This document shows, piece after piece, positions 38,838 through 62,420 of a stretch of 64,000 nucleotides of DNA. The notes beneath the pieces are model-generated. The model was not told the origin of the DNA. It saw only the letters and a program-made list of their open reading frames with translations, and made no database searches. The stretch is from Rhabdothermincola salaria (GTDB lineage Bacteria; Actinomycetota; Acidimicrobiia; Acidimicrobiales; Acidimicrobilacustridaceae). The stretch covers positions 1 to 64,000 of the forward strand of contig NZ_JAJQXW010000004.1 of the NCBI RefSeq assembly GCF_021246445.1, in the 5' to 3' direction. The translations under genes and the position numbers were made by a program. How positions within the stretch are numbered: position 1 is the stretch's first letter; the number at the start of each line of letters is the position of its first letter.

Positions 38838-38855
38838 TCGTCAGCCCGCCCTTGC

Positions 38856-41800: not shown

Positions 41801-42164
41801 CGGCACGCCGTTGGCCGGCCCCCTTGCCGGGACTAGGGATGCGCTTCGGATCCCAGGGGCGCCACCGAACCAGACCCTCGACGCGGGTTCCCTCGGCCGC
41901 TCGTCGGTCCCAGTTCGCGTAGGGCACATCCTTGCTTCCAAGTCCCAGGTAGTGGGTGGTCTCGAGGTCCTTGACGATGGGGATGTCTGTCTCAGCACCC
42001 CCGTCGTACTCATAGGGGAGGTCGATGTGCAGGAAGCCGAAGCAGCGCGGCAGGTGTGCCTTGTCCCAGCCGTTGGCCACAAGACGGCGGTCCAGCTCAC
42101 GCCAGACGTATCGCAGGGTCTTGCCGCCGGAGCCGCCAACACCGATGAAGAGATAGGGCTGCAC
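38856..42164 (-). CDS. Tubulin-like (FtsZ-like, Tubulin_2) GTPase with long helical extension
   Basis: IGVGGSGGK, GAGQRRAVGR, GSLAGGSGSG. Confidence 0.9.
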   Translation of the reverse strand: MQPYLFIGVGGSGGKTLRYVWRELDRRLVANGWDKAHLPRCFGFLHIDLPYEYDGGAETDIPIVKDLETTHYLGLGSKDVPYANWDRRAAEGTRVEGLVRWRPWDPKRIPSPGKGAGQRRAVGRVVSVLQHEQISAAVTQAMDALVEGDAHSDLRQLATTLSDGDVFGGSGHVVVVGSLAGGSGSGIFLDVVESVSKATTAFGGNADPQTILLAPDVFTNLGPDAGIYPNALAALAELVNASESTGILPSPEQELRSGPLRDVAGARLGRSNFVVGASNGDVTFGSVREVYEAVGRMLGALALSPRHQQPLDQYIDVNAAVTPVRRSLGEAAACTSVGYAVVGLGRHLFQQYAAERMARRVYDRLVAGHDERDPDVPSEVRLARAVDARWDGGFLAATGLNELGSESNQVIDALRNLDEVKDRVQAMKNDVLESIRGRVNKFTGKDWLTAHEGEFKTPALKLEQFETSERHRRAKEWTDTIQVRLVDAVVQEVATYGVPVALRLLQRLDEDIENSIADLRREVDEHREKERKYSSNAKSVLLNFVAEFKGNAEEHDKSSQLRGSALLMRFEAETASLAAELLTDVRANLLPPLRTSLKGFLDRLQVSATQEPTKSLMLRWSSNEVPPHLQPAANELLIEPASGFPATLERLLSELFEGTQAIDAVKKGAEEIITGDWPAYDGAPHGQTLISSMASWEPQAGAARWADAAASTAEFRIGLTADQLPRRAAQWLAERQGPVSEFLAESLAEFLNDQAAAGRNTSAFLDAFTLALSKSRPFVFVDSDVSLELHGATGEDTYTSVSTIPVAAEPGTALYDSLVQALTTAGIDPGGIVFDASNRAADVDVIRYPTIKFHPAALKSFTGPIAEDWGNRQGQDVGRADFWNCRRSRTLEAYVPLPREQLMSLVSGYFLAATLGYVDLPADELWSAKQRHVWSPDGPLALPRYLLSAQGREPRSAKEVLPALLESFPLTWLAVTADHSVLPAYERLMDLGSTHDGRCHGEVSEWVKSGERETGTAPHPAGITGLEVDSASDADQRREALAKRLNGIAATLSDRSGKPLKSSTPPRDIDGLREITGLVAEALSVTVESLPSGGDHDGDPLI

Positions 42165-42181
42165 GAAGTCCTCCAGATTGC

Positions 42182-44860
42182 CTATGAGATGGGAAGGTCG
42201 GGATCGTCGTCACCCAGATCGTCGATGACGGCGTTGTCGGAGTCCGGTGTCGATGACTTCGACAACGTGGGACCCCACCGCCGGCCTGGCCGCTTGACCG
42301 CAGGCCGACGCTGGGTGAGCTGGGACGCGGCCTCGGCGATGCGCTCCTCGGCATGAACGGCTAGGCGTTCGGCGTCGGTGTCGAAGTGAGCGCCGTCCGC
42401 AACGATGTAGGTCAACGACCCGTGCATCGTTCCCGGGCCTTCGCCGGTGTCGTCCTCATCGCTGGTGATCGAACGCAGGGCGAAGATCCACGTGGACGCC
42501 ATGGCCAGGGGTATCTGGTGGGATGGCTCGTCGGGGTAGGACCTGAGTGGAAGGCCCGGCGAACCAGCCACGAGCGGGAGACCACTCGGGTGCGACACCG
42601 TTGCTTCGCCACCCGCGAAGAGCCCAGCGATCGCACGCCAGATCGTGGTGCCGAACCGCCGCTGAGCCTGAAGCTGTCCAACCGACACAGAGGGCACACC
42701 TCGCTTCCGCTCGCTGGTGGCGTCCAGAACGACGAAGTCATCGGGAACCAAGGGCGAGTCACCACTGGGCTCCAGGCCTCGGGCGATACTCCACGTCACG
42801 TCCGCCGCCGCCCATCGAAGCAGCTGGGGAGGTCCGAGCAGGGTGCTTCGCCTGGCTGTGAGGACGAGCACCCCGATCGGGATCCCGACGCCCAGCAACA
42901 TCAGCAGGCTGAAGATCACCCAGCGACGGAGCTCGTTGAGCGGCGGCCGCATGTCGAATTCGACTTCAACTGGCACTCGTCGGATCTCTTCGCTCGCGTC
43001 GCTCTTCAGGAAGACGGCAACTTCGCCCGTGGCCACCCCGGCTGCCGACCTCGTCGGCTCGACGGTGATCTCAACCTGGCGACGCTCCCCCGTGGGGATC
43101 GGGAGACACGACGACTCGGCCGGCGGAGCTGGTGACAAGAGGATCGGCACCTCCTCAGTCGCGGCGTCGGCGGCCTCGGCCGGGAGCGTGACGGGACCGC
43201 CTTCGATCCACACGCATCCGTCGCTGATGTCACTGCCGGCGATGGTGAGAGTTCCCGTCGTCGCGGAACTCCCCCGAACTCCCGGAAGACGCAAGGGGAC
43301 CGGACTGACAGATGGATAGGTGGCAGGCGGGAGGACATCGACGGTGACGGTTCGTCCAGCCACTGAAACGTCGGTCCCGTCCGGTGGCGCGACCGTGGCT
43401 TCGAGCACCACCTCGATCGACGATCCCTCGAAGTCCTCGGGGATCGCGATCGTCGTCTCGAATCGACCGTCGGTTCCAGTCACGGCGAGTGGTTCAGTGT
43501 CGCCAGTCTCGGGATTCCGAAGGCTTGCCGTGATCGATGACCCGGCGAGCACAGGCGAGGCATCGATCGGGCTTCCATCGAGCCGTTCGAAGCCGACCTC
43601 GACGTTGACTCGCTCACCGGCACGCAGGGTCGGATCGGCGCGAAAGCCGGGGACGATGTCAGCCCGAAGTCGGACGTCGATCCTGCCTGCCGCGCCCGGG
43701 TCTGGCGGCCCGTCGGTGACGAAGCGGAGGGACCACTGCCCCACGATGGAAGCCCCAGCCGATTCGTCGGCCGTCACCTCTGCCTGGCGATCCCCGAACC
43801 AACGCACTCTGACCTCGGTGTCCGCGAGCTTCGTCTCGCGGTTGTCGCCAGGTTGCACCATGACGGTGGCCCCCGACGGAGAGGTCAGTTCGAAGGCCGT
43901 CCCTTGAGTGGGCGTCTGTGCCCGTAGCGCGAAGCCGTTGAAGCCATCAGGAACGGCGAAATCGCACTGCGGCGAGTCGGGTGTCGGGCAGAACAACTCG
44001 AAGAGCGCAGGATCGATCGCGCCCAGCTGGAAGAAGAGATCGTCCGCGTTCAACGCGGTGAGGAAGAGACCCGTGGCCTCGGACCCAGTGGTTCCGCATG
44101 TCTCGCCACCTGCTTGGCCGACGGTCAGCGCCTCGAGGAAGCGCAACGACCCGTCGTCGAGCCCTGAAGCGAGGCCAACCGAGATGGTCACGACGCCGTC
44201 AGACCGAAGACCGTCGGTCACGCCACCGTCGGCGCAGAGCAGCTGGCGACCAGCAGCCTCGTCGGCGTCGAGGGCTAGGTCGTATCGGCCATCGGTGAAG
44301 AAGACGAGGAGCTTGCACGGAGGCGGCCCTCCGTCGGCGGTGAGCTCGGACGACTGGATCGCGAGGTCGCGGCGCGCGCCACTCAGTGCCGACAAGTAGT
44401 CGGTGAAGGCACCGCCGTCTCGATCGGCCAACTCGCCCGCCTGACCACTCAGTTGGTCGAAGGTCGTCTCGTCGAGAACGTTCCAGGCGGGCTCTGCATC
44501 CGCGCTTTCGGGGACCAAGGGCTGGTAGCCCTCGGCGAACGTCACCACGCGGACGAGCACCTCGAGGTCATTTCCGCCGGGCTGTTGAGACGTCAAGCCG
44601 GCAAGTCCGCTGAGTAGCGCCCGAACACCCGGAACTCGCTGATCGTCAGGGTCGGTGTCCCTGAGCGATCCCGATTCGTCGACCACCACCAGCGCGAGCA
44701 GTCGCGCGGTGCCGTTCGACTGCTCGAGACAGGAACGAAGTGTCGCAAGGGCGGGTGGCACGGCGGGTTGCTGCTGGGCTTGGGCCGGTGCTGTGCCAGT
44801 GAGTGCCGCCGTCGCGAGCAACGTCACCACCATGGCCAGAAGCGCGAGTCTGACCCTCAT
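42182..44860 (-). CDS. Exported vWA domain protein with late TM anchor
   Basis: Signal peptide; MIDAS DESGS, TDY, FFTDG; one TM helix followed by a cytoplasmic tail. Confidence 0.88.
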   Translation of the reverse strand: MRVRLALLAMVVTLLATAALTGTAPAQAQQQPAVPPALATLRSCLEQSNGTARLLALVVVDESGSLRDTDPDDQRVPGVRALLSGLAGLTSQQPGGNDLEVLVRVVTFAEGYQPLVPESADAEPAWNVLDETTFDQLSGQAGELADRDGGAFTDYLSALSGARRDLAIQSSELTADGGPPPCKLLVFFTDGRYDLALDADEAAGRQLLCADGGVTDGLRSDGVVTISVGLASGLDDGSLRFLEALTVGQAGGETCGTTGSEATGLFLTALNADDLFFQLGAIDPALFELFCPTPDSPQCDFAVPDGFNGFALRAQTPTQGTAFELTSPSGATVMVQPGDNRETKLADTEVRVRWFGDRQAEVTADESAGASIVGQWSLRFVTDGPPDPGAAGRIDVRLRADIVPGFRADPTLRAGERVNVEVGFERLDGSPIDASPVLAGSSITASLRNPETGDTEPLAVTGTDGRFETTIAIPEDFEGSSIEVVLEATVAPPDGTDVSVAGRTVTVDVLPPATYPSVSPVPLRLPGVRGSSATTGTLTIAGSDISDGCVWIEGGPVTLPAEAADAATEEVPILLSPAPPAESSCLPIPTGERRQVEITVEPTRSAAGVATGEVAVFLKSDASEEIRRVPVEVEFDMRPPLNELRRWVIFSLLMLLGVGIPIGVLVLTARRSTLLGPPQLLRWAAADVTWSIARGLEPSGDSPLVPDDFVVLDATSERKRGVPSVSVGQLQAQRRFGTTIWRAIAGLFAGGEATVSHPSGLPLVAGSPGLPLRSYPDEPSHQIPLAMASTWIFALRSITSDEDDTGEGPGTMHGSLTYIVADGAHFDTDAERLAVHAEERIAEAASQLTQRRPAVKRPGRRWGPTLSKSSTPDSDNAVIDDLGDDDPDLPIS

Positions 44861-45159
44861 GACAGCTCCCAGGCGACGAAGCTCGCATGGAGGATCGAGA
44901 TGGCGAAGCCGACTGCGACCAAGGCCACGCTCGCGACCGTCTGCCACTGCGGGGGCACTCGGCCTGTCTGCGCGCTCCACCGCGTCGTCGCACTGCGGTT
45001 CATCGCGACGAGGGTCGTGGCGACCGGTCCGGCCAAGAACCATCCGATGGCCCGCACCGCCACGTCATCGCTCACGAACGCGAGCGCTGCGATCATGACG
45101 GCCACGACCGCGCCCGCGAGCAGGAGGAGTCGGCTCTCAGTGAATCGGGAGCTCATCAT
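44857..45159 (-). CDS. Small 3-TM membrane protein
   Basis: Hydrophobic; ATGA overlap with the vWA gene. Confidence 0.7.
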   Translation of the reverse strand: MMSSRFTESRLLLLAGAVVAVMIAALAFVSDDVAVRAIGWFLAGPVATTLVAMNRSATTRWSAQTGRVPPQWQTVASVALVAVGFAISILHASFVAWELS

Positions 45160-52412: not shown

Positions 52413-52610
52413 TCCGCTCCCTCACCAGCCTGCCAGCAAGTGACGGCACGTCTGCGTCAAACGGAAGCCCCGCATCGCCAGTTCAGTCCTCATGCTAGCC
52501 AACTGAATCGGGCAGCCTCTACTCCCCGGGAGGGGCCTCAATACGAAGGGACACTCGCTCACCGACCGACTCGACGTGCGGGGAACCTCCGGCGCTTCGC
52601 TGCAGAGATG

Positions 52611-52650
52611 GTGTGGAGTTGCCCCGCTTTGGTGGACACCTGATTCTGGG
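52611..52650 (+). mobile_element. Solo IS3-like terminal inverted repeat
   Basis: TGGAGTTGCCCCGCTTTGGTGGACACC; 18/20 inverted match to 59685-59704. Confidence 0.55.
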
Positions 52651-53274
52651 GGAGACCCTGGAGGAAGTCTCGGCCACTGGATCGGACACCGTGACGATCA
52701 GCCCGGCGGAAAGGTCGATCTCCTCCCCGAACCGTCCAGCGACCGCGTCCTCGACTGCGGCTTCCGCCGCGACCTCAGAATTCGAACGCAGATCACCGTC
52801 GGAGATCTCCCGGTCCTCCGAGGACGGGGAGTCACCCGAGAACTCACAGTCAACTGTTCGCCAGGACCCGTCCTCGTAGACGTAGGGTTCGAAACCGCCG
52901 CCGTCGTCGAACGGCTCGCCATCGAACAGAAACTCGATGGCGACCTCCCCGGTCGTTTCGGTCACCTCGCGAGTGAGGACCTCGCCGACCTCCGCCTCCG
53001 AGAGGTCAATACCGAAGCCCTCGGCCATCGCAAACGCCACCGTCATCTCTGCGTTGAAGTCCGCCCGCGAGAGGGAATCCCGGCACTCCTCGGTCAACCG
53101 CCCGTACAACACGCCGAAGTCTTGCGCGACAACTGCCGCGGCGACCTTCTCCCCTGCAGCCTGAAGACCAGCTCCGTCAGCCGACTCACCGCCGCCATCC
53201 CCTCCACCGCAGGCAGCCACCACGAGACCACCTGCCAACAGAGCTGCTGTCACCGCACGACGCGCCACCGCCAT
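52650..53274 (-). pseudogene. Lipoprotein, probably 3'-truncated by the IS end
   Basis: Lipobox VAACGGG; the acidic sequence changes abruptly in character at the IR, and the ORF stop lies at 52519. Confidence 0.55.
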
Positions 53275-53411
53275 CACACCTCGCCTGGTGTCTCGACCTC
53301 TCGGGTCGCACATTGGTCTATCAGCCAACGTGCCAATTCGGGTCGTTCGTCGTTGGTGGTGCCCCCGTCGTTGGACACCGGATTCTCAAGGAATGGTCAG
53401 ATGACCCCGGG

Positions 53412-53974
53412 CTAGGTGTCGAGGGCTTCCAGGACGCCGTCCTCCCAGGCCCACACCTGGCAGGCAGTCGGGAAGGTCTCGACCTCGAGTGGCACCTCAC
53501 CGGGACGGTAGACCTCGATGAGGGTGCTGAGCAGGGAGTGGGCCGAGCGTGCGATGGCGTCAGCCCCGCCAACGTCTTGCCACCAGTGCCGGGCGATGTC
53601 GGGCTTGTCGTCCCAGTCGGGGGGCCGTAGGGAGGGGTCCTCAGCAAGGTTGGGGGCGTCCACCCGAGGCGGGCGAGGTGGTCGTGCTGCGCGTGGGTCA
53701 GCGCCCAGGGGGTACCGGTCAGGTAGGTGTTGGAGACCGCTTCGAGGTGCGCGCCGACCTCGGTGACGATGCACTGCACGAACACCTCGGGTCGCCCTAC
53801 GGGGGCGATGATCACCACCCACGCCCCGTCGGCCTGCAGCTGGCCGAGAAGCGCCTCCAGCCGGTCGAGGAGGTTCTCGCCGGACTCCTGGGCGCTGAGC
53901 GGGAACCGCCCTTGAAGTGGGCGCGGGCTGGGTAGCTCTCGGGGGTCGTCGAGCGGGGAAGCTGACGTGGCCAT
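53412..53974 (-). pseudogene. TY-Chap-like chaperone domain protein, frameshifted
   Basis: FVQC..HLEAVSNTYL..LARLGW in one frame and HWWQ..LLSTLIEVY..FPTACQVWAW in another; shift near 53650-53662; homologous to 55316-55876. Confidence 0.7.
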
Positions 53975-54011
53975 GGTGTCCTCCAAGGATGTTCGTGGGC
54001 ACCGAGGGCTG

Positions 54012-54118
54012 TGCCACCTTTGCCGATTACCCGACCAGCTCTTACCTCGGAGCACCGCTGGTGGACGGTTGCTGGGGTGCAGGCCGAGTACCTACAGGCG
54101 CACCCACTCGTTGAAGCG
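54012..54118 (-). ncRNA. SAM-IV-like riboswitch, copy 1 (P1/J1-2 divergent)
   Basis: P2 GGGUGC/GCACCC; P3 AGCAACCG/CGGUGCU; PK1 CUCGG/CCGAG; PK2 CCACC/GGUGG. Confidence 0.7.
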
Positions 54119-54213
54119 CCTGGTGCGAAACAGCCTCCGTAGCAACGCACGAGGCGTCCGAGGAACGCGGGCAAGGCTCCGACCAAGCGACCGGGGGGAT
54201 GCGCCGCTCACCG

Positions 54214-55152
54214 TCAGCGAAAGGCCGTCGAATCGAACTCGATGCGGGAGGAGATGCCGCTCGGTTCGATGTCGACCCAGCCCACTCCGTCTACCAGGCG
54301 GGGCATGCCGGCCGACGGCGGTTGCTCGATGAGACCGGCGGAGCCGAGGGCGCCGAAGAGCCCGTTGGCGTCCCAGCCGGGGGCGTTGTCGAGCACCCAC
54401 GCCATGGCGAAGCCTCGGGTGATCGGGATGAAGTGCAGGAAATGCACGACCGTTCTGGCCGTGTCCCCGTCGAAGCGCAGAGGGCGCCGGCCCGACCGGT
54501 TGGCCGGGTAGCCCGCCGGGCGGTTCACCAGGTAGCCGTTCTCGTCGGTCTCGTAGTGGCGGCCGCCGTCGGTGACCACGATGCGCTGGTGGGCTGGCGG
54601 TAGGTCGCTCTCTTCGACCGGCACCCCAGGGACGAGGGTGATCTCGCACTGGGGTGCGTCGAGGGTGAGGCCCGGCTCGACGTCGGCGCGCTCGGCGACC
54701 AGGGAGATGACCCGTGCCTCGGCCCCGGCGAGGGTCTCGAGCAGGCGGACGGCGACCCGGGCCTGCAGGATCGTCGCCGAGGAGCCCTCCAACTCCCCGA
54801 GCCAGTCGGCCGCGCTCTGGGGACCAACGACCTCGCACTCCCCGACCTGCAGCTCGATCTCGAAGCTGGAACCGGAGTCGTCGACGACCCAGCCGTCGGC
54901 TTCGACGTCGATGCCCTTCGCCCCGAGATGCAGGAGCCCAAGAGCGAACCTGACCATGTCTCTCGGGTCGTCGTCGAGGTGCACAAAGCTGCCTTCGCGG
55001 CGCTCCCACCCGTCCCGGTAGGTGCCGTCCTCGATGGGCTCGATCTTGGGGCTGAGCTTCACGAGCCGGTCGATCTGGGTGACGAGAGCATCGAGGTCGG
55101 TGACCTTCACCATGGCGCGGGCAGTGACGGAGTACGGGCTGGGGTTCGACAT
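54214..55152 (-). CDS. Hypothetical protein behind a SAM-I-like riboswitch
   Basis: 312-aa ORF with GAGGAGG RBS; no family recognised. Confidence 0.8.
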   Translation of the reverse strand: MSNPSPYSVTARAMVKVTDLDALVTQIDRLVKLSPKIEPIEDGTYRDGWERREGSFVHLDDDPRDMVRFALGLLHLGAKGIDVEADGWVVDDSGSSFEIELQVGECEVVGPQSAADWLGELEGSSATILQARVAVRLLETLAGAEARVISLVAERADVEPGLTLDAPQCEITLVPGVPVEESDLPPAHQRIVVTDGGRHYETDENGYLVNRPAGYPANRSGRRPLRFDGDTARTVVHFLHFIPITRGFAMAWVLDNAPGWDANGLFGALGSAGLIEQPPSAGMPRLVDGVGWVDIEPSGISSRIEFDSTAFR

Positions 55153-55161
55153 GGTGTCCTC

Positions 55162-55248
55162 CTCATCGGTCCTGGCGGTGGCACCGTGCGCCGAGGCGTC
55201 GGTTGCCCGACCGTCACAGGGCCAGGCCCCTCAGGTCGTCAAGATGAG
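55162..55248 (-). ncRNA. Compact SAM-I-like riboswitch lacking P4
   Basis: P1 CUCAUC/GAUGAG; P2 CGACC/GGUCG with kink-turn-like GA/UGA; PK CUGG/CCAG; P3 GGCAACCG/CGGUGCC. The P1 3' strand overlaps the RBS. Confidence 0.8.
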
Positions 55249-55315
55249 ATGCAAAGCCAGCGCATGACTGCGTCGGATAGGTGCCGCACAGTCGCCGGCG
55301 GAGTGTGGGTGGGTG

Positions 55316-55876
55316 TCACTCGAGGCTGTCGATGTACCCGCCGAAGGGTTCGGTGGGGTCGTCCACCCACTCCCACTCCTGGCAGTCGGCGGGAAAGACG
55401 GTCACCGACACCGGTTCGTCGGCCGTGAGCCCGTACACGCCGATCAGCGTCGACAACAGCTGATCGGCGGTGGCATCGAGATGATGCGGGCCCGGCTCCT
55501 CGATCCACCAGTTCTCGGGTGCGCCGTCGTGTTCGTCGGGATCCAGGGGCGGCTGCCAGCCCCGCCGGGTGAGCTCGTCGATCTGGTCGCCGCTGAGCTC
55601 GAGACCTACGGGTTCGAGGTAGCGGTGGCCGACGGCTTCGACGTGGGCACCTACTGGGGTGAGCAGGGCCTGGGTGTAGTGGCGCTCTAGGAAGGTGCGC
55701 TCGAGGATCACGCAGTGCGAGCCGCGTCCCACGAGGTCGGCGAACTTGCGCACCAAGGCGCAACGGAAGGCGTCGACCCCGCCGCCCCCGCTGATGCTGA
55801 CGAGGAACGATTCGCTGACGGGAGCGCGCTGGTCGGCGTCGGCCTCGCCGAGGAAGCCGTGGGGGTCGGTGTGCAT
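55316..55876 (-). CDS. TY-Chap-like (T3SS/YbjN-type chaperone) domain protein
   Basis: HYTQA..HVEAVGHRYL..LTRRGWQPP..NWW..LLSTLIGVYG. Confidence 0.7.
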   Translation of the reverse strand: MHTDPHGFLGEADADQRAPVSESFLVSISGGGGVDAFRCALVRKFADLVGRGSHCVILERTFLERHYTQALLTPVGAHVEAVGHRYLEPVGLELSGDQIDELTRRGWQPPLDPDEHDGAPENWWIEEPGPHHLDATADQLLSTLIGVYGLTADEPVSVTVFPADCQEWEWVDDPTEPFGGYIDSLE

Positions 55877-55905
55877 CGAGGGTCCTCTCTGGGACACCTC
55901 GGGTG

Positions 55906-56011
55906 TCCCACCTTTGCCGTGACAGGGGCCGGCTCTTCCCTCGGGGCACCGTTGGTGGACGGTTGCCGGGACGACAGGCCGAGTACCTCTCACGCCGTCC
56001 GCTCTTGAGCC
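55906..56011 (-). ncRNA. SAM-IV-like riboswitch, copy 2
   Basis: P1 GCUC/GAGC; J1/2 AAGAG; P2 GGACGGC/GUCGUCC; P3 GGCAACCG/CGGUGCC; both pseudoknots present. Confidence 0.8.
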
Positions 56012-56018
56012 ACCTCTC

Positions 56019-56040
56019 ACACTACAAAGGGGGTGTGACA
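56019..56040 (-). promoter_or_regulatory. PafBC/RecA-NDp-like promoter
   Basis: TGTCAC-N10-TAGTGT, 8 nt before the aptamer. Confidence 0.6.
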
Positions 56041-56148
56041 CTTCCGCCGGACCGTGGCAGGAGGGTTCTGCTAGGCACCCGCGCCGCCGCGCCCCCGGCA
56101 TCACCCAGGCTTCGCACCACTCCTCGTAGTGCTGCAGGGCCTAGGAAG

Positions 56149-56874
56149 TCATGGCGACGGGGACTCGGCCACCTTTTCGAGATGCGCGTTCAGGACCCAC
56201 CACTCGATCGGCCATGGTTGCTCCCGGTCCAGATGCTGGTCTTCTCGGGGGTACCGGCCAGCGGAGACGATGACCCCGCGAAGGGACTTGCCCTGCGCCA
56301 TGTCGGTCTTGGCGAGGAGGTTGAGGTAGTCGATCACCTGCCCGACCGTGCCCGATGGGCTGCTCAGCTCGAACTCGACGACGACCAGGCCTGTCCACCG
56401 GCCAGCGGAGCCCCTCTCCTTGAGGAGCAGATCGATGCGCTGCTTGCGACCAGGAATGCTGAACTCGACCTGGGGACTGTCGCAGTGAACGAATGGCCCG
56501 GGTCGGCCTACCCGACTGAGGACCCAGCGCCGAAGGTCGTTCTCGCTGGGCACAAGAAGACCGACGTCGGCGAACGGCACTTTGGCGAACCGGACCCAGC
56601 AGTCTGGAGTCAGGGTCGGATCTGACAGCGGCCGATCGGTCTCGAGCCCGGCCGCTGCCGCTGCGCGCGCAAGCTCCTCACGGAGCTTGGGCGACATCAC
56701 CTTGTTGCCCCCTGCCCGAATGAGGCTCGACACCTTCCGCACGGTGCTGCATGAGCTGTCGGCCACGTCACCCCAGGGTTCTGGGAGCGATACCGCCAGG
56801 TCCTGCATGTAATCGACGAGGGACGGCCGAACTGGGGCGTCTTCGTTCATGGGAGGGAGTCTAGGAATGGGCAT
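56149..56874 (-). CDS. NucS-like PD-(D/E)XK nuclease-fold protein
   Basis: SENDL, QVEF..RIDLL..LVVVEFE, VGQVIDY, RGVIV. Confidence 0.7.
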   Translation of the reverse strand: MPIPRLPPMNEDAPVRPSLVDYMQDLAVSLPEPWGDVADSSCSTVRKVSSLIRAGGNKVMSPKLREELARAAAAAGLETDRPLSDPTLTPDCWVRFAKVPFADVGLLVPSENDLRRWVLSRVGRPGPFVHCDSPQVEFSIPGRKQRIDLLLKERGSAGRWTGLVVVEFELSSPSGTVGQVIDYLNLLAKTDMAQGKSLRGVIVSAGRYPREDQHLDREQPWPIEWWVLNAHLEKVAESPSP

Positions 56875-56892
56875 CTGCAGGGATCAGCGAGG

Positions 56893-57250
56893 TCACCAGA
56901 TCGTCACGACGTCGATGCCCGGGACCTGGTGTCCGACCCACTCACCCAGAACCGTCTCCAACAGGTTCACGACTCCCTCCTCGGTGTCGACCCTGAAGAC
57001 ATAGTCAGACGTCGAGAGCACCACATCGACCGTGCTGACCTCGTCGTCCGCGTCGATGCCGAACTCGCGCCGCAGCTCGGGCGGCGGAGACCAGGCCGGC
57101 TCAAAGCTGTAGCCGTCCGACAGCCGGCCAACAGCCCACTCACGCAATGCGTCGACATCGTCGATGATGACGCCGATGTCGATTGTCAGCCGGCGTTCCG
57201 TGCCTGCCGACGCCTGTTCTTCGGAAATCTCTGTCAACCTGACTCCCAGG
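56893..57250 (-). CDS. Acidic hypothetical protein (start uncertain)
   Basis: The 3' part of ORF 56893-57474 has protein-like composition. Confidence 0.5.
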
Positions 57251-57398
57251 TTCCGGGGTTCACCACCACGCCAGCTGCTCGGACGCCAGAGCGGCGTTGC
57301 CGCTCGCCCTCGAGAAATCTGACCGTTCGCCCCTTCGTTTGATCCGCTGTACAGCCGCTCGAGCACCTTACGCAGCGAATAGTGAGGCCGCTTCGGAG

Positions 57399-58175
57399 CT
57401 AACCATGATGCCGGTCTGTCCACCCGCTGAGGTCGTGGTCCGTGGCGAGCTCGTCGTCCTCGAGCGGGCGCCACGATTCGTCCTCGATCCGGATGATGGG
57501 TGAACGGCCGGCGTTCTCGAAGCCGTTGCCGTGGATGGCAGCCAGTTCGACGAGCCGGACCGGCACGGGTTCGGCCTCGAGGTAGATCGTGCCCTCGAGC
57601 TCGGCCCAGGTGGTCCCGTCCGGGTAGAGAAGCTTGCCGACGTCAGGGCGGTCGACGATGCCGCTGGCGAACGAGAAGGCCCACTCCACCGGCACCTCGC
57701 CTGCCAGGCGGGCCATCACCTCTTCGGCGACGCCGTGCTCCCGGGTGCCATGCAACCGCAGCGCAGGCCGGGTCCGGCCGGGCGTGCGGACCAGCGCCAT
57801 CGACCATTCTGCGGTGCCCTCGCCCCGTCGTGTGCTCGGGTCGACGAGCGCTCGGGCGAGCACGACGGCTCGTCCGAGGTGGTCGTCGGCCACGACCACG
57901 ACGAGACCTCCGTTCACCTGCCCGGTGACGAACATGCCCATCCTCGACAGCCCGGATTGGGAGTGGGCGGCGAAGCCACGCTGTCCGCGCTCGAGCGCCA
58001 GCCAGCTCGTCGAGCACCATCGAGCGCCCTGAGTGAGGTCGGGATCCGGTCGGTAGGGCACACGATGTCCGTTAAACCGGACGTCACGTTGGCCGGGAGC
58101 GACGTAGCCGAGGACGGTGTTGCAGCCGAACACCCAGTCGACGTCGGGGACGGGCTGGGACTCGTGGGTGCGCAT
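57399..58175 (-). CDS. Hypothetical protein behind a SAM-IV-like riboswitch
   Basis: 258-aa ORF with GGAGGAGG RBS. Confidence 0.75.
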   Translation of the reverse strand: MRTHESQPVPDVDWVFGCNTVLGYVAPGQRDVRFNGHRVPYRPDPDLTQGARWCSTSWLALERGQRGFAAHSQSGLSRMGMFVTGQVNGGLVVVVADDHLGRAVVLARALVDPSTRRGEGTAEWSMALVRTPGRTRPALRLHGTREHGVAEEVMARLAGEVPVEWAFSFASGIVDRPDVGKLLYPDGTTWAELEGTIYLEAEPVPVRLVELAAIHGNGFENAGRSPIIRIEDESWRPLEDDELATDHDLSGWTDRHHG

Positions 58176-58206
58176 CGGGTGTCCTCCTCCGGGACACCGA
58201 CGAGGC

Positions 58207-58315
58207 GTCCCACCTTTGCCGTGTGGAGCTGGCCGGCTCTTCCCTCGGGGCACCGTTGGTGGACGGTTGCCGGGACGACGGGCCGAGTACCCGAGTCGTC
58301 GTCCGCTCGTGAGCC
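58207..58315 (-). ncRNA. SAM-IV-like riboswitch, copy 3
   Basis: P1 GCUC/GAGC; P2 GGACGAC/GUCGUCC; P3 and both pseudoknots as in copy 2. Confidence 0.8.
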
Positions 58316-58322
58316 ACAGACC

Positions 58323-58344
58323 ACGCTACGCAGGGGGTGCGACA
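58323..58344 (-). promoter_or_regulatory. PafBC/RecA-NDp-like promoter
   Basis: TGTCGC-N10-TAGCGT, 8 nt before the aptamer. Confidence 0.6.
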
Positions 58345-58399
58345 ACGCCGTCTGTCCCTGGCCTCGTCACAACCGACCGGCCATGATGGGTTCTGCTCC

Positions 58400-59122
58400 A
58401 TGAATGAATCGGAGGGTGTCGTGCCCGAATCCCGACCCGACGGCGATCGGCCGCCCCAGATGACGCAGCGCTACACCCGAGCGTTCGACCAGGCGCGGGT
58501 GCTCCACGCCGACGACGTCCGCAAAGGCACCCAGCTCCCCTACCTCAGCCACGTGATGGCGGTGGCGGCGCTCGTGCTCGAGTACGGCGGAGATGAGGAG
58601 CAGGCGATCGCCGGGCTCCTCCACGACGCGGCCGAGGACAAGGGCGGCTGGATGAGGCTGGATGCCATCGAGGCGGAGTTCGGATGCGGCGTCGCCCGGA
58701 TCGTCGAGGCGGTCAGCGACTCGTTCACTGACGACAAGGCCACGAAACGCGACTGGGTGACAAGGAAGACGGAGTACATCGAGCACGCGAAGTCGCTCGA
58801 TGCCCGGGCCGCGCTGGTGTCCGCCGCCGACAAACTCCACAACCTCAACGCCATCCGCTCCGACCATCGCACCCTGGGCCCGGAGCTGTGGAAGCGCTTC
58901 AATCAGGCCGCCAAGAGGGACGGCACGCTCTGGTACTACCGGAGCCTGGTCGATGCCCTTGGCCCCACCCTCGAGGCCGAAGGCGGACGTTCCGAGGCGA
59001 TGGCGAGGGATCTCCGAGCTGCCGTGGTCGGGCTTCTGGCTGAGGTCGTCGCCCAGCCAGAGGAGTCAGTCACCCGAGAGAAGCTGGAAAAGGCGATCGA
59101 GAAGCCGCCGTTCACCAACTGA
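58400..59122 (+). CDS. HD-domain protein, small alarmone hydrolase (RelA/SpoT HD, Mesh1-like)
   Basis: H..DVRKG..PYLSH, AGLLHDAAED, ADKLHN, W.RF. Confidence 0.88.
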   Translation: MNESEGVVPESRPDGDRPPQMTQRYTRAFDQARVLHADDVRKGTQLPYLSHVMAVAALVLEYGGDEEQAIAGLLHDAAEDKGGWMRLDAIEAEFGCGVARIVEAVSDSFTDDKATKRDWVTRKTEYIEHAKSLDARAALVSAADKLHNLNAIRSDHRTLGPELWKRFNQAAKRDGTLWYYRSLVDALGPTLEAEGGRSEAMARDLRAAVVGLLAEVVAQPEESVTREKLEKAIEKPPFTN

Positions 59123-59137: not shown

Positions 59138-59680
59138 GGGTCTGCTGCAGGTTCGGTTGACGGTAGTTGAGACTATTCAGGCCGCGTGAGCGACCTCGGT
59201 GGGTGTGAAGGCGAGCTCGAACTCGACCGGGGTGAGACGACCGAGGGCTCGTTGGCGGCGCCGGTGGTTGTAGGTGTGCTCGATCCAGGTCACGACGGCG
59301 TAGCGCAGCTCGGAGGGGGTGTCCCAGCGCTGGCGGTCCAGGACGTTCTCTTGGAGCAGCGAGAAGAACGATTCAATCGCAGCGTTGTCACCGGCCGAGG
59401 CGACGCGGCCCATCGATCCGGTGAGCCCGGCAGCGCCGAGCGCGGTCCGGAAGACTCGGGACCGAAGCGGTGGGGTGCTCGGTGATGTCAGTCAGCCAGA
59501 TCTGGTAGGGCCGCTCGGCGGTGAACTCGCGCTGGACGAGGTCATCGTGAACGGCCGGGCCGGGTCGGCCCTTGCCCCGCCGGCCTTTGCGGGTGGTGGT
59601 CGACCACAGCCGCTGGTCACGACACAGCCGCCACACCCGCCGTTCTCCGAGGTCGTGGCCTGCGGTCTCGAGCTCATCGG
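59138..59680 (-). mobile_element. Internally deleted IS3-family element remnant
   Basis: DNAAIESFFSLLQ, YNHRRRQRALGRLTPVEFE, DLVQREF..WLTDITEHPT; broken reading frames. Confidence 0.88.
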
Positions 59681-60567: not shown

Positions 60568-62235
60568 CTATGGGAGCGCGAACTCGACTCCGGATGGTTC
60601 GGGCACGCCGAGGAGCTTGGCCAGCTTCTCCCGCGCTGAGCTCGACGGCGTGCCCACGGCCGTCTCCCAGATCGACACCGTCGCCTGGTCGACCCCCAGC
60701 CCATCGGCGACTGCCTGCTGAGTGAGGCCTCGCTCGAGACGAGCGGACCGGATGGCCGCGGCGTACTCGGGCGATGGTGAGGGCCGCTTCGCTCGGCCGG
60801 TGAACTCCTTCTCGTTGGACCGGATCGTCCACTGATCAGGGGCTGTGCGCATCAGGAGCGGCGAGAACTGCGTGAGCTGGGAAGCGGCTGCTTTAGACAT
60901 CCCGGCGCTGAGGAAGGCCTCGCAGAGATCACGGTAGGTACACCAGCCGCCTCGCAGCCGAATGGTCTCAATGGCGGTTCGCTCAGATTTCGAGAGCAGC
61001 TCCATGGGCTCAGCGGTCGCTGAGGTCACGAGGCCATCGGCCAGTTCAAACCGTGGGTGGTCGTCGAAGAATCGCTCGAGGACCGGAGTCGGCGGAAGCG
61101 GATCGAGTCGACGTTGGCCCACGACCCTGGTGAGGCCTCGCTCTATGGATTCGACCTTCATGGGTCCGCATGCGCCAAGGAGCTTGCGGGTGAAGTTGAC
61201 GAGAGTCGACTTCGTATCACTTGCAGTGGGGTCCCAAAACCAGTCCGCGTCGAGCCAGCGTACGGACCCGAGCGAGTCGAGCACCGATCGCAAGTCGTCG
61301 ACGTCCACAGCGCTGTCCCCGAGGTCAGTCAGCGATGCGAGCGCGAGCGGAGCCGGGGTGCGGCTTCGCCGGCGGACCAGCTCCAAGAGCTCGGCGTGGG
61401 CCCTTGCTTCGTCGACGGACGCGCCGACGACCCCATCAACGACCACTGGCAAGTCGACGAACTCGCAGATCTCACACGCGATCAGAAGGCCTTCGATCGA
61501 CACGTTCGTGAATCCGGCGTGAGCGAGAGTCTGCAGCATGATCGGTTCGGTGCTCGGGCACCGTTCCCAAATCACTTCCAGAGCCTGCTCCAGGAGGGGT
61601 ACGGGACCGGGACATGCCTTCAGAGCGTCCCGGACCGCGTTCTCCTTGAGCCGCGCGCTCTCCCGGGTCTTCTCCACGAGCCGGCCAGCCTCTTCGAGGG
61701 TGAGGCGCGTCGCAGTGTTCCAGCCGAGCCGGCCAAGCACCGGCTCGAGCCATCCTTCCTCGGCCGTGCGCGGTCGGGCAGCAACGATCCACGCCGCCAG
61801 CGCTTCGTCGAGAGCTTCTGGCTCAGAGAGCTCACCGGGTGCACCTTCCGCTGGCTCGGTCGTCTCAGACGTCCTCGATGACGGGCGGCGACCGGTCTCC
61901 TCGTCGGCGGCGTCGTCGATGACGCCTTGCGGGGCGACACGTGCGGCGCAGGCCACCATGAGTTGGGCAATCGAGGTGGTCTTTGGTAGCTGGCGTCCTT
62001 CCTCCCACCCCCGAATCGAGGTGACCGAGACGCCAGCGGCCACTGCGAGGTCATCGCGCGTGTAGCCAACAGCACGGCGGAGGGATCGGATCGCGATCCC
62101 GATCCGACGGGCCTGCACGGTGGGGTCGCCCCCGGCAGGGTCGACCGAGAACGGCATGAGGACGGTCGGTCCGGCGGATGGCACAGTTGACTCCACGTTC
62201 GTTGGGGACAGGCTTGACAGTGGTGGCAGGACCAT
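60568..62235 (-). CDS. Multi-HTH protein: N- and C-terminal XRE domains plus a central sigma-region-4-like HTH
   Basis: IRSLRRAVGYTRDDLAVAAGVS..WEEG; LTLEEAGRLVEKTRESAR; ARLERGLTQQAVADGLGV..WE. Confidence 0.8.
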   Translation of the reverse strand: MVLPPLSSLSPTNVESTVPSAGPTVLMPFSVDPAGGDPTVQARRIGIAIRSLRRAVGYTRDDLAVAAGVSVTSIRGWEEGRQLPKTTSIAQLMVACAARVAPQGVIDDAADEETGRRPSSRTSETTEPAEGAPGELSEPEALDEALAAWIVAARPRTAEEGWLEPVLGRLGWNTATRLTLEEAGRLVEKTRESARLKENAVRDALKACPGPVPLLEQALEVIWERCPSTEPIMLQTLAHAGFTNVSIEGLLIACEICEFVDLPVVVDGVVGASVDEARAHAELLELVRRRSRTPAPLALASLTDLGDSAVDVDDLRSVLDSLGSVRWLDADWFWDPTASDTKSTLVNFTRKLLGACGPMKVESIERGLTRVVGQRRLDPLPPTPVLERFFDDHPRFELADGLVTSATAEPMELLSKSERTAIETIRLRGGWCTYRDLCEAFLSAGMSKAAASQLTQFSPLLMRTAPDQWTIRSNEKEFTGRAKRPSPSPEYAAAIRSARLERGLTQQAVADGLGVDQATVSIWETAVGTPSSSAREKLAKLLGVPEPSGVEFALP

Positions 62236-62420
62236 AACCTCAGGCTGACTTCCCGAGCCGTCGGCCTGCGCTCGCGAGATGTCGCGGGTTAGACGTGGTT
62301 CGTTGGTCCTTCTGAAGCGGCCGGCGCACAGCCTCCTGCATGAGGGGCCCCATGGTGGGTCGAGTCGCACACCATGTCAGACGACCTTCCAGTTCCGGCA
62401 GAACCAATCTGCTCCGGTGC

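Follow-up and report, generated by a model that had tools for sequence, protein, structure and literature searches.

Four genuine SAM-clan riboswitch aptamers lie in the leaders of four co-oriented genes of Rhabdothermincola salaria, within the 64,000-nucleotide stretch of DNA that was analysed (the window). No sequence library makes the encoded proteins sulfur or methylation enzymes, in agreement with an earlier note made from the letters of the sequence, which had described the genes as unrelated to sulfur metabolism. The reading we favour, to which we give about an even chance, is that the leaders are functional SAM-binding OFF riboswitches and that the genes form an accessory, horizontally acquired stress or anti-phage module, induced at low SAM and located in ARG/ARPP-type neighbourhoods. 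In this reading, we infer SAM binding, OFF polarity and the role in defence. The presence of SAM switches before one of these gene families (the g4 family) in several distant relatives links a group of genes of unknown function with SAM shortage, and literature searches found no comparable arrangement in print.

Scanning the whole window with Rfam 15 at gathering thresholds (38 bits for SAM-IV, RF00634; 44.4 bits for SAM-I, RF00162) returned exactly four matches, three SAM-IV and one SAM-I, all on the minus strand (Table 1). The earlier note had proposed four SAM-family leaders, three of them homologous and about 105 nt long and one of SAM-I type. Both the clan and this division are borne out by the curated models, with coordinates that agree within 1–2 nt. 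In the g4 leader, P1, P2a, P2b, P3, P5 and the pseudoknots PK-1 (CUCGG/CCGAG) and PK-2 (CCACC/GGUGG) were all found. Each of the four aptamers is followed, after 8–37 nt, by the start codon of a gene in the same orientation, which has a ribosome-binding site of the GGAGGA type. The leaders of g3, g4 and the g4 paralogue on contig C1 also have in common an upstream box with a TAGNGT element, which by its sequence resembles a –10 site.

Table 1. Aptamers, genes and neighbouring features of the riboswitch cluster (positions in the window).
Feature	Position	Strand	Evidence or remark
g1, broken TY-Chap3 paralogue	53412..53974	-	N-terminal part matches PF22552, 1.1e-9
SAM-IV aptamer, g1 leader (weakest copy)	54011..54117	-	RF00634, 45.6 bits
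g2, 312 aa, orphan family	54214..55152	-	AF2 model pLDDT 73.4
P4-less SAM-I aptamer, g2 leader	55160..55250	-	RF00162, 53.9 bits, E 1.3e-9
g3, 186 aa, TY-Chap3 (predicted peptide-binding chaperone fold)	55316..55876	-	PF22552, E 1.8e-11; pI 4.4
SAM-IV aptamer, g3 leader	55905..56010	-	RF00634, 53.7 bits; covariation
241-aa gene	56149..56874	-	No match in Pfam, NCBIfam, PHROGs or PADLOC
Small ORF 3' of g4, 193 aa as listed	56893..57474	-	True start uncertain; only C-terminal ~110 aa protein-like
g4, 258 aa, founder of the g4 family (no named family)	57399..58175	-	AF2 model pLDDT 90.8
g4 expression platform: anti-sequestor hairpin overlapping PK-2 3' strand, then sequestor hairpin over ribosome-binding site and AUG	58176..58206	-	Folding
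SAM-IV aptamer, g4 leader	58207..58314	-	RF00634, 53.6 bits
HD_4 gene (RelA/SpoT-type hydrolase domain only), divergent neighbour without riboswitch	58337..59122	+	PF13328, E 1.3e-24

The SAM-IV fold is maintained by compensatory changes, which cover every helix and both pseudoknots. In an alignment of nine distinct SAM-IV leaders (five from this genome, one from genome G024 and three from metagenomes), 98.2% of cells pair and 7 of the 31 pairs show compensatory changes, a level of covariation matched by 0 of 500 shuffles. When the 3' partners were slid by 1–3 columns as a control, only 37–51% of cells paired. Together, the covariance-model scores and the covariation exclude chance as the origin of the four leaders. 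The conserved core (UCA..GAG, GCAACC, GGUGC, GAAGAG) is canonical, as are both pseudoknots.

Two of the downstream genes had been called TY-Chap-like, and g3 and the N-terminal part of g1 indeed match Pfam TY-Chap3. Relative to an intact paralogue on contig C2 (519/564 nt identical, 92%), g1 lacks one nucleotide of a C-run near 53656; this break may mark g1 as a pseudogene, stem from a homopolymer sequencing error or be a site of phase variation. Neither g2 nor g4 has a match in Pfam, NCBIfam, PHROGs or PADLOC. The relatives of g4 amount to 50 representative clusters among 1.84 billion proteins, those of g2 to seven proteins, every one metagenomic. The AF2 model of the g2 N-terminal domain (residues 1–160) has a generic ferredoxin-like fold. 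The small ORF 3' of g4, possibly co-transcribed with it, gave no family match in the same four libraries, and its GC3 falls under the filter applied to ORFs. The nuclease fold that had been ascribed to the 241-aa gene found no counterpart in these libraries.

Folding of the leaders is consistent with control at the level of translation. All eight SAM-IV leaders folded have a sequestor hairpin that covers both AUG and ribosome-binding site (–14.1 to –19.3 kcal/mol), together with an anti-sequestor hairpin of –9.0 to –16.6 kcal/mol that drops to –1.8 to –8.3 kcal/mol without GGUGG. For g4, the anti-sequestor goes from –15.8 to –8.3 kcal/mol once PK-2 takes GGUGG, and the sequestor measures –17.7 kcal/mol. 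No terminator-like sites were found in the leaders (shuffles average 1.3), and this, combined with hairpins that mask the ribosome-binding site, fits translational OFF switches. The g2 SAM-I leader is of a minimal translational design: GAUGAGG, the P1 3' strand, overlaps GAGGAGGA, the ribosome-binding site, and belongs to it.

We propose that, when SAM is plentiful, the predicted riboswitches would shut off translation. SAM would lock PK-2, and the resulting occupation of GGUGG would weaken the anti-sequestor by 7–12 kcal/mol; its freed 3' arm could then pair with the segment of the ribosome-binding site and AUG to form the sequestor. In the g2 leader, the ribosome-binding site subject to control would include the P1 3' strand itself. 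Only falling SAM would allow g4, g3 and g2 (and g1, if intact) to be made, together with metX. Plain equilibrium folding predicts the sequestor hairpin whether GGUGG is free or taken, and the ribosome-binding site keeps the same mean probability of being unpaired (0.3–0.5) in either case. As the equilibrium fold is indifferent to GGUGG, the switch would need co-transcriptional kinetics.

The whole genome (3.9 Mb) contains five SAM-IV and one SAM-I aptamers above threshold. All six precede a TY-Chap3 gene (3/3 copies), a member of the g4 family (2/2) or g2 (1/1), which shows that above-threshold SAM-I and SAM-IV aptamers are paired exclusively with three non-sulfur families in this genome. A seventh aptamer, a near-threshold SAM-I/IV, has metX behind it as usual. 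A separate SAM-I/IV aptamer of 39.8–41.6 bits precedes MetX in genomes G000, G057 and G024, and in G019 a 39-bit aptamer is followed by a near-identical ORF, a candidate MetX. With metX behind SAM-I/IV, the four switches of the window supplement the normal regulon without replacing it.

The earlier note had suggested looking for the same leader–gene pairs in related genomes, and for the g4 family such pairs exist. Among 400 further genomes of the class, six have a member of the family. Its gene stands behind a SAM-clan aptamer (SAM-IV, SAM-I/IV or SAM-I) in five of the six judgeable genomes and four of the five genera, at protein identities of 22–36%, showing that the pairing is conserved across genera and aptamer classes. 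In G057 and G019, a SAM-I/IV aptamer (61.7 and 59.0 bits) lies directly upstream of the gene; in G325, one of 52.8 bits heads a two-gene operon with the g4-like gene second. G024 has a SAM-IV aptamer before its g4-family gene, the surroundings of which are ordinary metabolic genes. In G212, a SAM-I aptamer (58.2 bits) is placed directly upstream. The G212 leader closely resembles that of g2 (mean column identity 85% across the full alignment, including the flanks), and the P2-loop/J3-4 pseudoknot shows a compensatory change between the two. The g4-family gene of G389 has no aptamer within the 593 nt available upstream. The link between TY-Chap3 and SAM aptamers is not general in the class, as none of 28 TY-Chap3 loci in 27 other genomes has a SAM-clan aptamer within 1.5 kb. 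Searches of other genomes of the class found SAM-IV aptamers in none of 150 and in one of 40, and this near absence points to arrival with the island.

These observations also bear on whether the leaders are passengers, i.e. a cassette of riboswitch and ribosome-binding site that spread within the island by duplication and recombination, with no useful regulation left and the cluster partly decaying. Such a history would account for the frameshift in g1, for its weak aptamer, in which P1 contains a U-G pair and is followed by a 2-nt insertion, and for the nearly identical leaders before unrelated genes. It would also fit the g1 and g4 units being recent paralogues of units on contigs C2 and C1 (92% nucleotide, 75% protein identity). 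However, the compensatory maintenance of the fold and the sequestor/anti-sequestor pairings, kept with differing sequences in every leader folded, speak against it, and the persistence of the g4 pairing at such low protein identity and across aptamer classes requires selection. We consider passenger leaders very unlikely.

A different role for the genes deserves more weight, although we hold it to be rather unlikely. The switches could be of the ordinary SAM-OFF kind, and the genes, the g4 family in particular, could have an unrecognised part in SAM or methionine metabolism (e.g. SAM-cleaving, SAM-binding, MetK-interacting or salvage), with the island setting incidental. A riboswitch regulon usually concerns the metabolism of its own ligand, and unknown genes behind riboswitches have regularly proved to belong to the ligand's pathway, as reported in PMC3766115. 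Moreover, the g4 family keeps its SAM-clan aptamer over three classes and appears co-regulated with metX. In structure comparison, the g4 model comes closest to the phage T3 SAMase chain of 7OCK (Z 5.3, rmsd 3.4, 110/152 residues; next match Z 4.2), which came first again in a second look (Z 5.0; 110–112 residues over both); SAM is what the two have in common. Matches of the g2 N-terminal domain include the SAM-AMP lyase 9gab_D, seventh in the list with the same Z as the top match (5.4), and, in Foldseek, the phage SAM lyase 6zm9 at rank 41. However, all such Z-scores are below the tool's noise bar of 7–8, the domains are common ferredoxin-like sheets, and the other SAM lyases, 6zm9 and 9gab, are absent from the best 50 g4 matches listed. 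An additional beta domain at the N-terminus and a tail at the C-terminus set g4 apart from the SAM lyases, and no sequence similarity to them emerged from PDB-sequence profile searches, PHROGs, Pfam (E up to 1) or the atlas. The likeness of the modelled g4 to the T3 SAMase fold is therefore weak and only a lead, and we do not claim membership. For homeostasis, it would also be odd to induce a SAM-degrading enzyme when SAM is low. A core pathway step would not be as rare and patchy as this family, and TY-Chap3 is a predicted chaperone fold without known enzymatic role.

Between 18 and 62 kb of the window, GC content is 0.65–0.68, versus 0.71–0.72 in the genome's large contigs. Neighbours in this island include HD_4, DSPc, Cas4-nuclease/SF1 helicases of MkoA type (Mokosh-like), McrBC and GajB-like helicases. 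The g4 paralogue on contig C1 is divergent from a fusion of ADP-ribosylglycohydrolase (ARG; PF03747, 6e-68) and DSP phosphatase; the G057 homologue has ARPP-1 (2e-71) 3 kb away, and that of G325 adjoins an Eco57I-type methylase and a HEPN protein. The riboswitch-led proteins themselves match no PADLOC defence model. The earlier note had raised a SAM-depletion-triggered defence or island-stress regulon. Its SAM-clan leaders and non-sulfur genes stand, and they lie in a conflict-like, lower-GC island; induction and defence remain what we infer. These three features keep a SAM-depletion regulon the best reading, and it gains weight because g4-family genes retain a SAM-clan leader across genera. 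Natural triggers would be phage SAM lyases, MetK inhibitors or starvation. The SAMase of phage T3 is described as depleting SAM, inhibiting MetK and defeating type I restriction and BREX (PMC8406200; 10.1101/2023.02.27.530186).

By its gene content, the neighbourhood matches the type of the predicted ARG-centred anti-ADP-ribosylation conflict systems. These systems are predicted to counter viral ADP-ribosylation, list alarmone-type HD phosphatases among their components, and carry a Nudix or WYL transcription factor in >42% of cases (Iyer, Burroughs, Anantharaman, Aravind 2022, PMC9503650, section 3.8). Shared components are TY-Chap3, an alarmone-type HD phosphatase, phosphatases of the DSP/rhodanese-phosphatase superfamily and nuclease-helicases, as well as the ARG–phosphatase fusion of contig C1, ARPP-1 in G057 and a weak vWA-like protein (E 0.05–0.07, under the cut-off). 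In contrast to those systems, the scanned ORFs of the window include neither an ARG gene nor a Nudix or WYL gene, and SAM-clan riboswitches would gate individual small genes; the word 'riboswitch' is absent from PMC9503650.

The missing Nudix and WYL genes, none of which were among the ORFs scanned at this genome's three loci, could mean that the aptamers replace these sensors as specificity variants for another adenosyl compound (ADP-ribose, a NAD-derived signal or SAM-AMP) relevant to the neighbouring ADP-ribose-processing genes. The earlier note had floated such variants, and the P4-less SAM-I copy and a U-A pair in PK-1 where the family consensus has C-G could be taken as signs of them. 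However, the U-A pair in PK-1 is a compensatory exchange and does not alter the pocket, and the conserved core positions agree with the Rfam consensus of SAM-IV and SAM-I. SAM-IV, SAM-I/IV and SAM-I have one SAM pocket in common (PMC6890682), and all three precede g4-family genes, a pattern that selection for SAM sensing would give; parallel re-tuning of three classes is unlikely. With SAM-I/IV serving metX in the same genomes, another ligand is in our view the least probable of the readings.

SAM remains the favoured ligand, and the closest known relatives are the SAM riboswitches themselves. The SAM-IV leaders share the double-pseudoknot layout seen by cryo-EM (PMC6890682), with a 4-bp P1, P2a/P2b, P3, P5, PK-1, PK-2 and the core. 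They score above the RF00634 cut-off, and the lack of a detected terminator fits translational control. They depart from the consensus in their PK-1 sequence, and from the norm in what follows them. Whereas SAM-IV usually controls sulfur or methionine enzymes, such as the O-acetylhomoserine sulfhydrylase MAV_4315 of the actinobacterium Mycobacterium avium (PMC3774663), here TY-Chap3, the g4 family and other small proteins follow. SAM-I/IV (RF01725) leads both g4-family genes, in G057, G019 and G325, and metX in this bacterial family. S-boxes of the classical kind act by terminating transcription. The g2 leader is like the SAM-I (S-box) model in P1–P3 and the P2-loop/J3-4 pseudoknot; unlike the model, its P4 region has 2 nt instead of 18, and its P1 3' strand lies within the ribosome-binding site.

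Scanned against Rfam at curated thresholds, the whole window yields exactly four matches, all on the minus strand: one SAM-I aptamer and three SAM-IV aptamers, the latter matching their model over its full length. An earlier note, working from the sequence, had placed four SAM-family leaders here and grouped them as three plus one; both its coordinates and its grouping are right, and the Rfam covariance models by which it proposed to check them put every leader above the gathering score. Between 8 and 37 nt downstream of each aptamer is a start codon served by a GGAGGA-type ribosome-binding site. We number the four genes behind these leaders g1 to g4. The same note's view that they are unrelated to sulfur metabolism is supported by sequence comparison, the downstream genes being TY-Chap3 genes, a member of what we call the g4 family, and unknowns.

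Aptamers in the window, the genes that they lead and the operon of giant genes (positions in the window)
Feature	Coordinates	Strand	Description
SAM-IV aptamer, g4 leader	58314..58207	-	RF00634, 53.6 bits, cut-off 38
g4	58175..57399	-	258 aa
SAM-IV aptamer, g3 leader	56010..55905	-	RF00634, 53.7 bits, cut-off 38
g3	55876..55316	-	186 aa, TY-Chap3
SAM-I aptamer, g2 leader	55250..55160	-	RF00162, 53.9 bits, cut-off 44.4
g2	55152..54214	-	312 aa
SAM-IV aptamer, g1 leader	54117..54011	-	RF00634, 45.6 bits, cut-off 38
g1	53974..53412	-	TY-Chap3 (front part)
Three giant co-oriented genes	35586-45043	-	1083 aa, C-terminal Trypsin_2; 1102 aa, N-terminal Tubulin_2; 953 aa, family-less

The TY-Chap3 assignment (PF22552, curated cut-off 27 bits) has scores of 45.2 bits for g3, 39.5 for the N-terminal part of g1 and 50.9 for a further copy on contig C2 of the assembly. 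Compared with that intact paralogue, to which it is 92% identical (519/564 nt), g1 has lost one base in a C-run near 53656, which makes it a pseudogene unless the loss is a homopolymer sequencing error or marks a phase-variable site. Neither g2 nor g4 matched any model in Pfam, NCBIfam, PHROGs or PADLOC, and a 241-aa gene at 56874..56149, called nuclease-fold by the earlier note, had no match either. The riboswitch-led proteins are all acidic (pI 4.3-6.3) and appear to be soluble and cytosolic; sequence-profile searches of the PDB and searches of PHROGs and PADLOC returned nothing meaningful for them. We also considered whether g2, g3, g4 and two metagenomic ORFs behind such leaders (134 aa at locus L013, 271 aa at L015) belong together, but profile and BLAST comparisons show no relation, and they are therefore not one hidden family. 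Directly downstream of g1, a 269-aa ORF on the minus strand (52519-53328) has an N-terminus resembling a signal peptide with a lipobox (..LVVAACGG..) and no family match.

The SAM-IV fold was examined in nine distinct leaders, of which this genome supplied five, a relative one and metagenomes three, with pairs counted on the published layout of P1, P2a, P2b, P3, P5 and the two pseudoknots PK-1 and PK-2 (PMC6890682). Over 31 pairs, 98.2% of cells are paired, a level matched by 0/500 shuffles, and 7/31 pairs have changes on both sides. When the 3' partners are slid by 1-3 columns, pairing is only 37-51%. Helices P1, P2a/P2b, P3 and P5 and both pseudoknots are present with covariation support. 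The subtype departs from the family consensus at one point, in PK-1, which reads CUCGG/CCGAG versus CCCGG/CCGGG, a compensatory pair. For SAM selectivity, the comparison covered the letters of the conserved core, which agree with the Rfam consensus. That the aptamers have changed their ligand is very unlikely.

The SAM-I aptamer before g2 keeps P1-P3 and the pseudoknot between the P2 loop and J3-4. The latter reads CUGGC/GCCAG in this leader; the closely similar leader of another genome (G212) has CGGGC/GCCCG, again a compensatory change. Its P4 region measures 2 nt versus 18 in the model and has a single closing pair, and the leader lacks the four-way junction with a P4 helix that is expected of SAM-I; we therefore file it as a P4-less SAM-I variant. 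Just 5' of P1, the g3, g4, contig C1 and metagenome leaders have a box in common (CACCCCCT..GTAGNGTGAG..GTGG; window 56011-56040 and 58315-58345, loci L002 and L014/L015). The box is conserved and includes TANNNT, which looks like a -10 element; some copies also contain the inverted repeat TCACAC/GTGTGA. It could serve as promoter or operator.

Terminator-like sites number 0 in 53300-58500 (shuffles average 1.3), and control is therefore most likely translational. For g2, the ribosome-binding site GAGGAGGA, which lies 7 nt before the AUG, takes in the 3' strand of the SAM-I leader's P1 (GAUGAGG) and would be hidden by a P1 that SAM stabilises. Folding of eight SAM-IV leaders shows that the 3' strand of PK-2, GGUGG, shares nucleotides with the 5' arm of a hairpin, the anti-sequestor, of -9.0 to -16.6 kcal/mol, or -1.8 to -8.3 without GGUGG. 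The 3' arm of this hairpin could instead pair with the segment containing the ribosome-binding site and AUG (-14.1 to -19.3), and the arm sequences vary among SAM-IV leaders with pairing retained. The logic would be that of a three-part OFF switch, in which SAM leads PK-2 to take GGUGG and the sequestor hairpin then forms over the ribosome-binding site. At equilibrium, accessibility of this site is unchanged between PK-2 free and PK-2 engaged; since the sequestor is favoured in either case, the decision would fall during transcription. The hairpin energies thus suggest that the SAM-IV leaders act as OFF switches.

SAM riboswitches are regarded as a means of feedback control over sulfur and methionine metabolism. 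The usual position of SAM-IV, before sulfur, methionine or SAM genes, is typical rather than defining, and it is not the position found here. The assembly (3.9 Mb, 7 contigs, GC 0.72 on the three largest) contains five SAM-IV matches and one SAM-I match in total. The two SAM-IV copies outside the window (60.4 and 54.3 bits) precede the intact g1 TY-Chap3 paralogue on C2 and, on contig C1, a g4 paralogue that is 75% identical. A tblastn and Pfam search found no other genomic copies of TY-Chap3, g4 or g2, and a SAM-clan leader stands before 3/3 TY-Chap3 genes, 2/2 g4-family genes and the single g2 gene of this genome.

An ordinary SAM regulon is also present in this organism. A SAM-I/IV aptamer at C1:92135-92270 (loci L066 and L074), just under threshold with 40.8 bits for a cut-off of 41.1, precedes the gene for MetX, identified by an NCBIfam equivalog match of 489 bits, and one for a Cys/Met PLP enzyme; metK, metH and the gene for the other PLP enzyme showed no aptamer. 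As here, a second, weaker SAM-I/IV aptamer (39.8-41.6 bits) precedes metX in genomes G057 and G024, and G019 has a near-identical ORF behind its 39-bit SAM-I/IV aptamer. The Rfam threshold seems to miss the housekeeping copy of this lineage (39-42 bits in relatives). Six of the organism's seven SAM-clan aptamers serve small accessory genes in conflict-system neighbourhoods. The best-supported reading is that the four leaders would be SAM-OFF translational switches that put island-borne accessory genes under the same low-SAM signal as metX.

The earlier note had suggested looking for the same leader-gene pairs in related genomes; they recur for the g4 family but not for TY-Chap3 in general, where 0/28 loci from 27 other genomes have a SAM-clan match within 1.5 kb. 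A g4-family profile detects the family in six of 400 other genomes of the class. A SAM-I/IV aptamer lies directly upstream of the g4-family gene in G057 and G019, two genomes of the same genus (61.7 and 59.0 bits), and a SAM-I aptamer precedes it in G212 (58.2 bits). In G325, a g4-like gene comes second in a two-gene operon led by a SAM-I/IV aptamer (52.8 bits). The G389 gene has no aptamer within the 593 nt available upstream, and G405, where the gene begins at a contig edge, was left out of the count. A SAM-IV search above threshold found the aptamer in 1/40 other relatives (G024), before a 212-aa ORF recognised by the g4-family profile (E 8e-17, one target), and in 0/150 other genomes of the class. 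These searches used stricter filters and scored the best candidates alone, and may therefore have overlooked weak copies. A sub-threshold SAM-IV match in G004 (32.6 bits), which abuts a PPOX-like gene on the opposite strand, was treated as noise. With G024 counted, the g4 family is paired with a SAM aptamer in 5/6 judgeable genomes and 4/5 genera, at protein identities of 22-36%.

Near-identical leaders also stand before unrelated genes (g3 versus g4; the g2 leader versus the G212 g4-like leader); the SAM-clan leaders are therefore modular. That the leaders are passengers is nevertheless very unlikely. A metagenome scan with the subtype core pattern returned four loci (three distinct), all SAM-IV above threshold and each before a small family-less ORF (134 aa, 271 aa and one cut by the contig end); the pattern occurs 0 times in viral contigs. 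Metagenomic relatives were found for g2 and g3, and the g4 family comprises about 50 representatives. Comparison of g4 with plasmids and phages by tblastn gave no match, and among 400 sampled genomes of the phylum the only g4-family match outside the class was a marginal one. For g2, 400 genomes of the class gave three weak partial matches and no full-length relative. The one match from a scan of genome contigs with a g3-subfamily alignment was spurious (25 residues).

Between about 18 and 62 kb, GC content is 0.65-0.68 versus 0.71-0.72 for the large contigs of the genome, and near the end of this stretch lie an integrase-core fragment (59177..59413, rve_3) and a 600-aa double-HTH protein (60568..62370). 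It also encodes a CHAP domain protein, an AAA_33 kinase-like gene and the giant genes, which look like an uncharacterised conflict-type operon. The region ~18000-62000 is probably a horizontally acquired island. Among the neighbours of the riboswitch cluster are an HD_4 alarmone-type hydrolase, a DSP phosphatase, McrBC, a GajB-like helicase and a Cas4-like nuclease/SF1 helicase of the MkoA type. The C2 locus combines TY-Chap3 with an MkoA-type helicase, DSPc and a weak vWA-like protein. On C1, the g4 paralogue lies back to back with a fusion of an ADP-ribosylglycohydrolase (ARG) and a DSP-type phosphatase (PF03747, 6e-68), with a NERD helicase adjoining. The G057 homologue of g4 has ARPP-1 3 kb away, plus an AAA ATPase; that of G325 adjoins an Eco57I-type methylase, a helicase and a HEPN protein; the neighbours of that of G024 are ordinary metabolic genes.

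Several further features of these loci were observed. A trio of a SAM-IV-led TY-Chap3 gene, an MkoA-like gene (~1030-1120 aa; Cas4-like nuclease, RNase_H_2 and SF1 helicase) and DSPc occurs at both L010 (C2, 170-189 kb) and L009 (contig C4, 62-80 kb). In several genomes (L026, L027, L037, L010 and L013), tRNA genes lie within 1-4.5 kb of TY-Chap3 or SAM-IV-led genes, as expected of islands with tRNA genes as integration sites. In G057, the SAM-I/IV-led g4 homologue has a gene of the histone-deacetylase family immediately upstream (L055 6090-7124); in the present genome, a second such gene lies ~13 kb from g4 (L009 9173-10787; C4, ~71.2-72.8 kb), where a DUF1810 gene adjoins it.

The g4 model is predicted with confidence (pLDDT 90.8) and combines a small beta domain at the N-terminus with a domain built on an alpha/beta sheet. 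Foldseek found nothing in the PDB at E <= 0.001 for either g4 or g2, and the ESM Atlas was uninformative, its own models having pLDDT values of 0.27 and 0.36. In an exhaustive structural comparison of the g4 model, the top match was the phage T3 SAMase chain from 7OCK (Z 5.3, rmsd 3.4, 110 residues), followed by a structure at Z 4.2, and a second structural look again placed that chain first (Z 5.0). 7OCK is the T3 SAMase-MetK complex (PMC8406200). The N-terminal domain of the g2 model has a generic ferredoxin-like fold, with a SAM-AMP lyase (9GAB) among the tied top matches (Z 5.4). These Z-scores (5.0-5.3 and 5.4) are all below the tool's noise bar, no sequence method supports a relation to SAM lyases, and the likeness of the two models to such enzymes is a lead only. 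The main rival to a stress or defence role, namely that g4 and g2 have an unrecognised SAM-related biochemical role, is in our view rather unlikely.

Taken as a whole chain, a stress or defence role of the island gene set, triggered by low SAM, is evenly balanced between right and wrong. We favour it because of the gene neighbourhoods and because phages attack both SAM and MetK: they destroy the former and block the latter to escape restriction and BREX (PMC8406200; 10.1101/2023.02.27.530186). A more specific version of the stress or defence role is speculative and, as it stands, unlikely. Here the riboswitches would read low SAM as a danger signal, and phage SAM lyases or MetK inhibitors would unmask the ribosome-binding sites of the g4 family, the TY-Chap3 subfamily, g2 and other small proteins. 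The products might then provide second-line defence or rescue alongside ADP-ribose-processing systems, with the g4 family, whose fold is faintly SAMase-like, as effector or antidote acting, for example, on SAM, MetK or the phage SAMase. If the defence reading is true, metabolite riboswitches would rank beside protein sensors among the triggers of bacterial immunity. The label 'made when SAM is low' would give several functionally uncharacterised protein families a firm and testable handle.

SAM-IV has been described as an actinobacterial riboswitch (PMC1950547), and a known example stands before an O-acetylhomoserine sulfhydrylase (PMC3774663). The present loci put a well-studied switch to a new use, with one family, g4, keeping a SAM-clan leader across genera and three aptamer classes. 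SAM riboswitches together with defence systems or islands, SAM lyase, mobile elements or TY-Chap are an arrangement undescribed in the full-text literature searched; part of the novelty would fall away if the gene lists of the 2007 SAM-IV study include hypothetical genes behind SAM-IV.

Among the closest known counterparts are the 'ARG-centric' conflict systems, which are predicted to counter viral ADP-ribosylation and for which TY-Chap3 was defined (PMC9503650). Our loci match their parts list, with HD_4, DSPc, TY-Chap3 and the Cas4-like nuclease/SF1 helicase as accessory parts. The ARG core, however, is found only at the paralogous locus on C1 and not at the window locus, where no PF03747 match turned up in the ORFs scanned from 18 to 64 kb or in those scanned over the 16 kb that follow. 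Whereas over 42% of ARG-centred systems include a Nudix or WYL transcription factor (PMC9503650), no transcription factor with either domain was found among the ORFs scanned at the three loci of this genome. Riboswitches are not mentioned in that study, and the SAM-clan leaders are a candidate regulatory input for these predicted anti-ADP-ribosylation systems.
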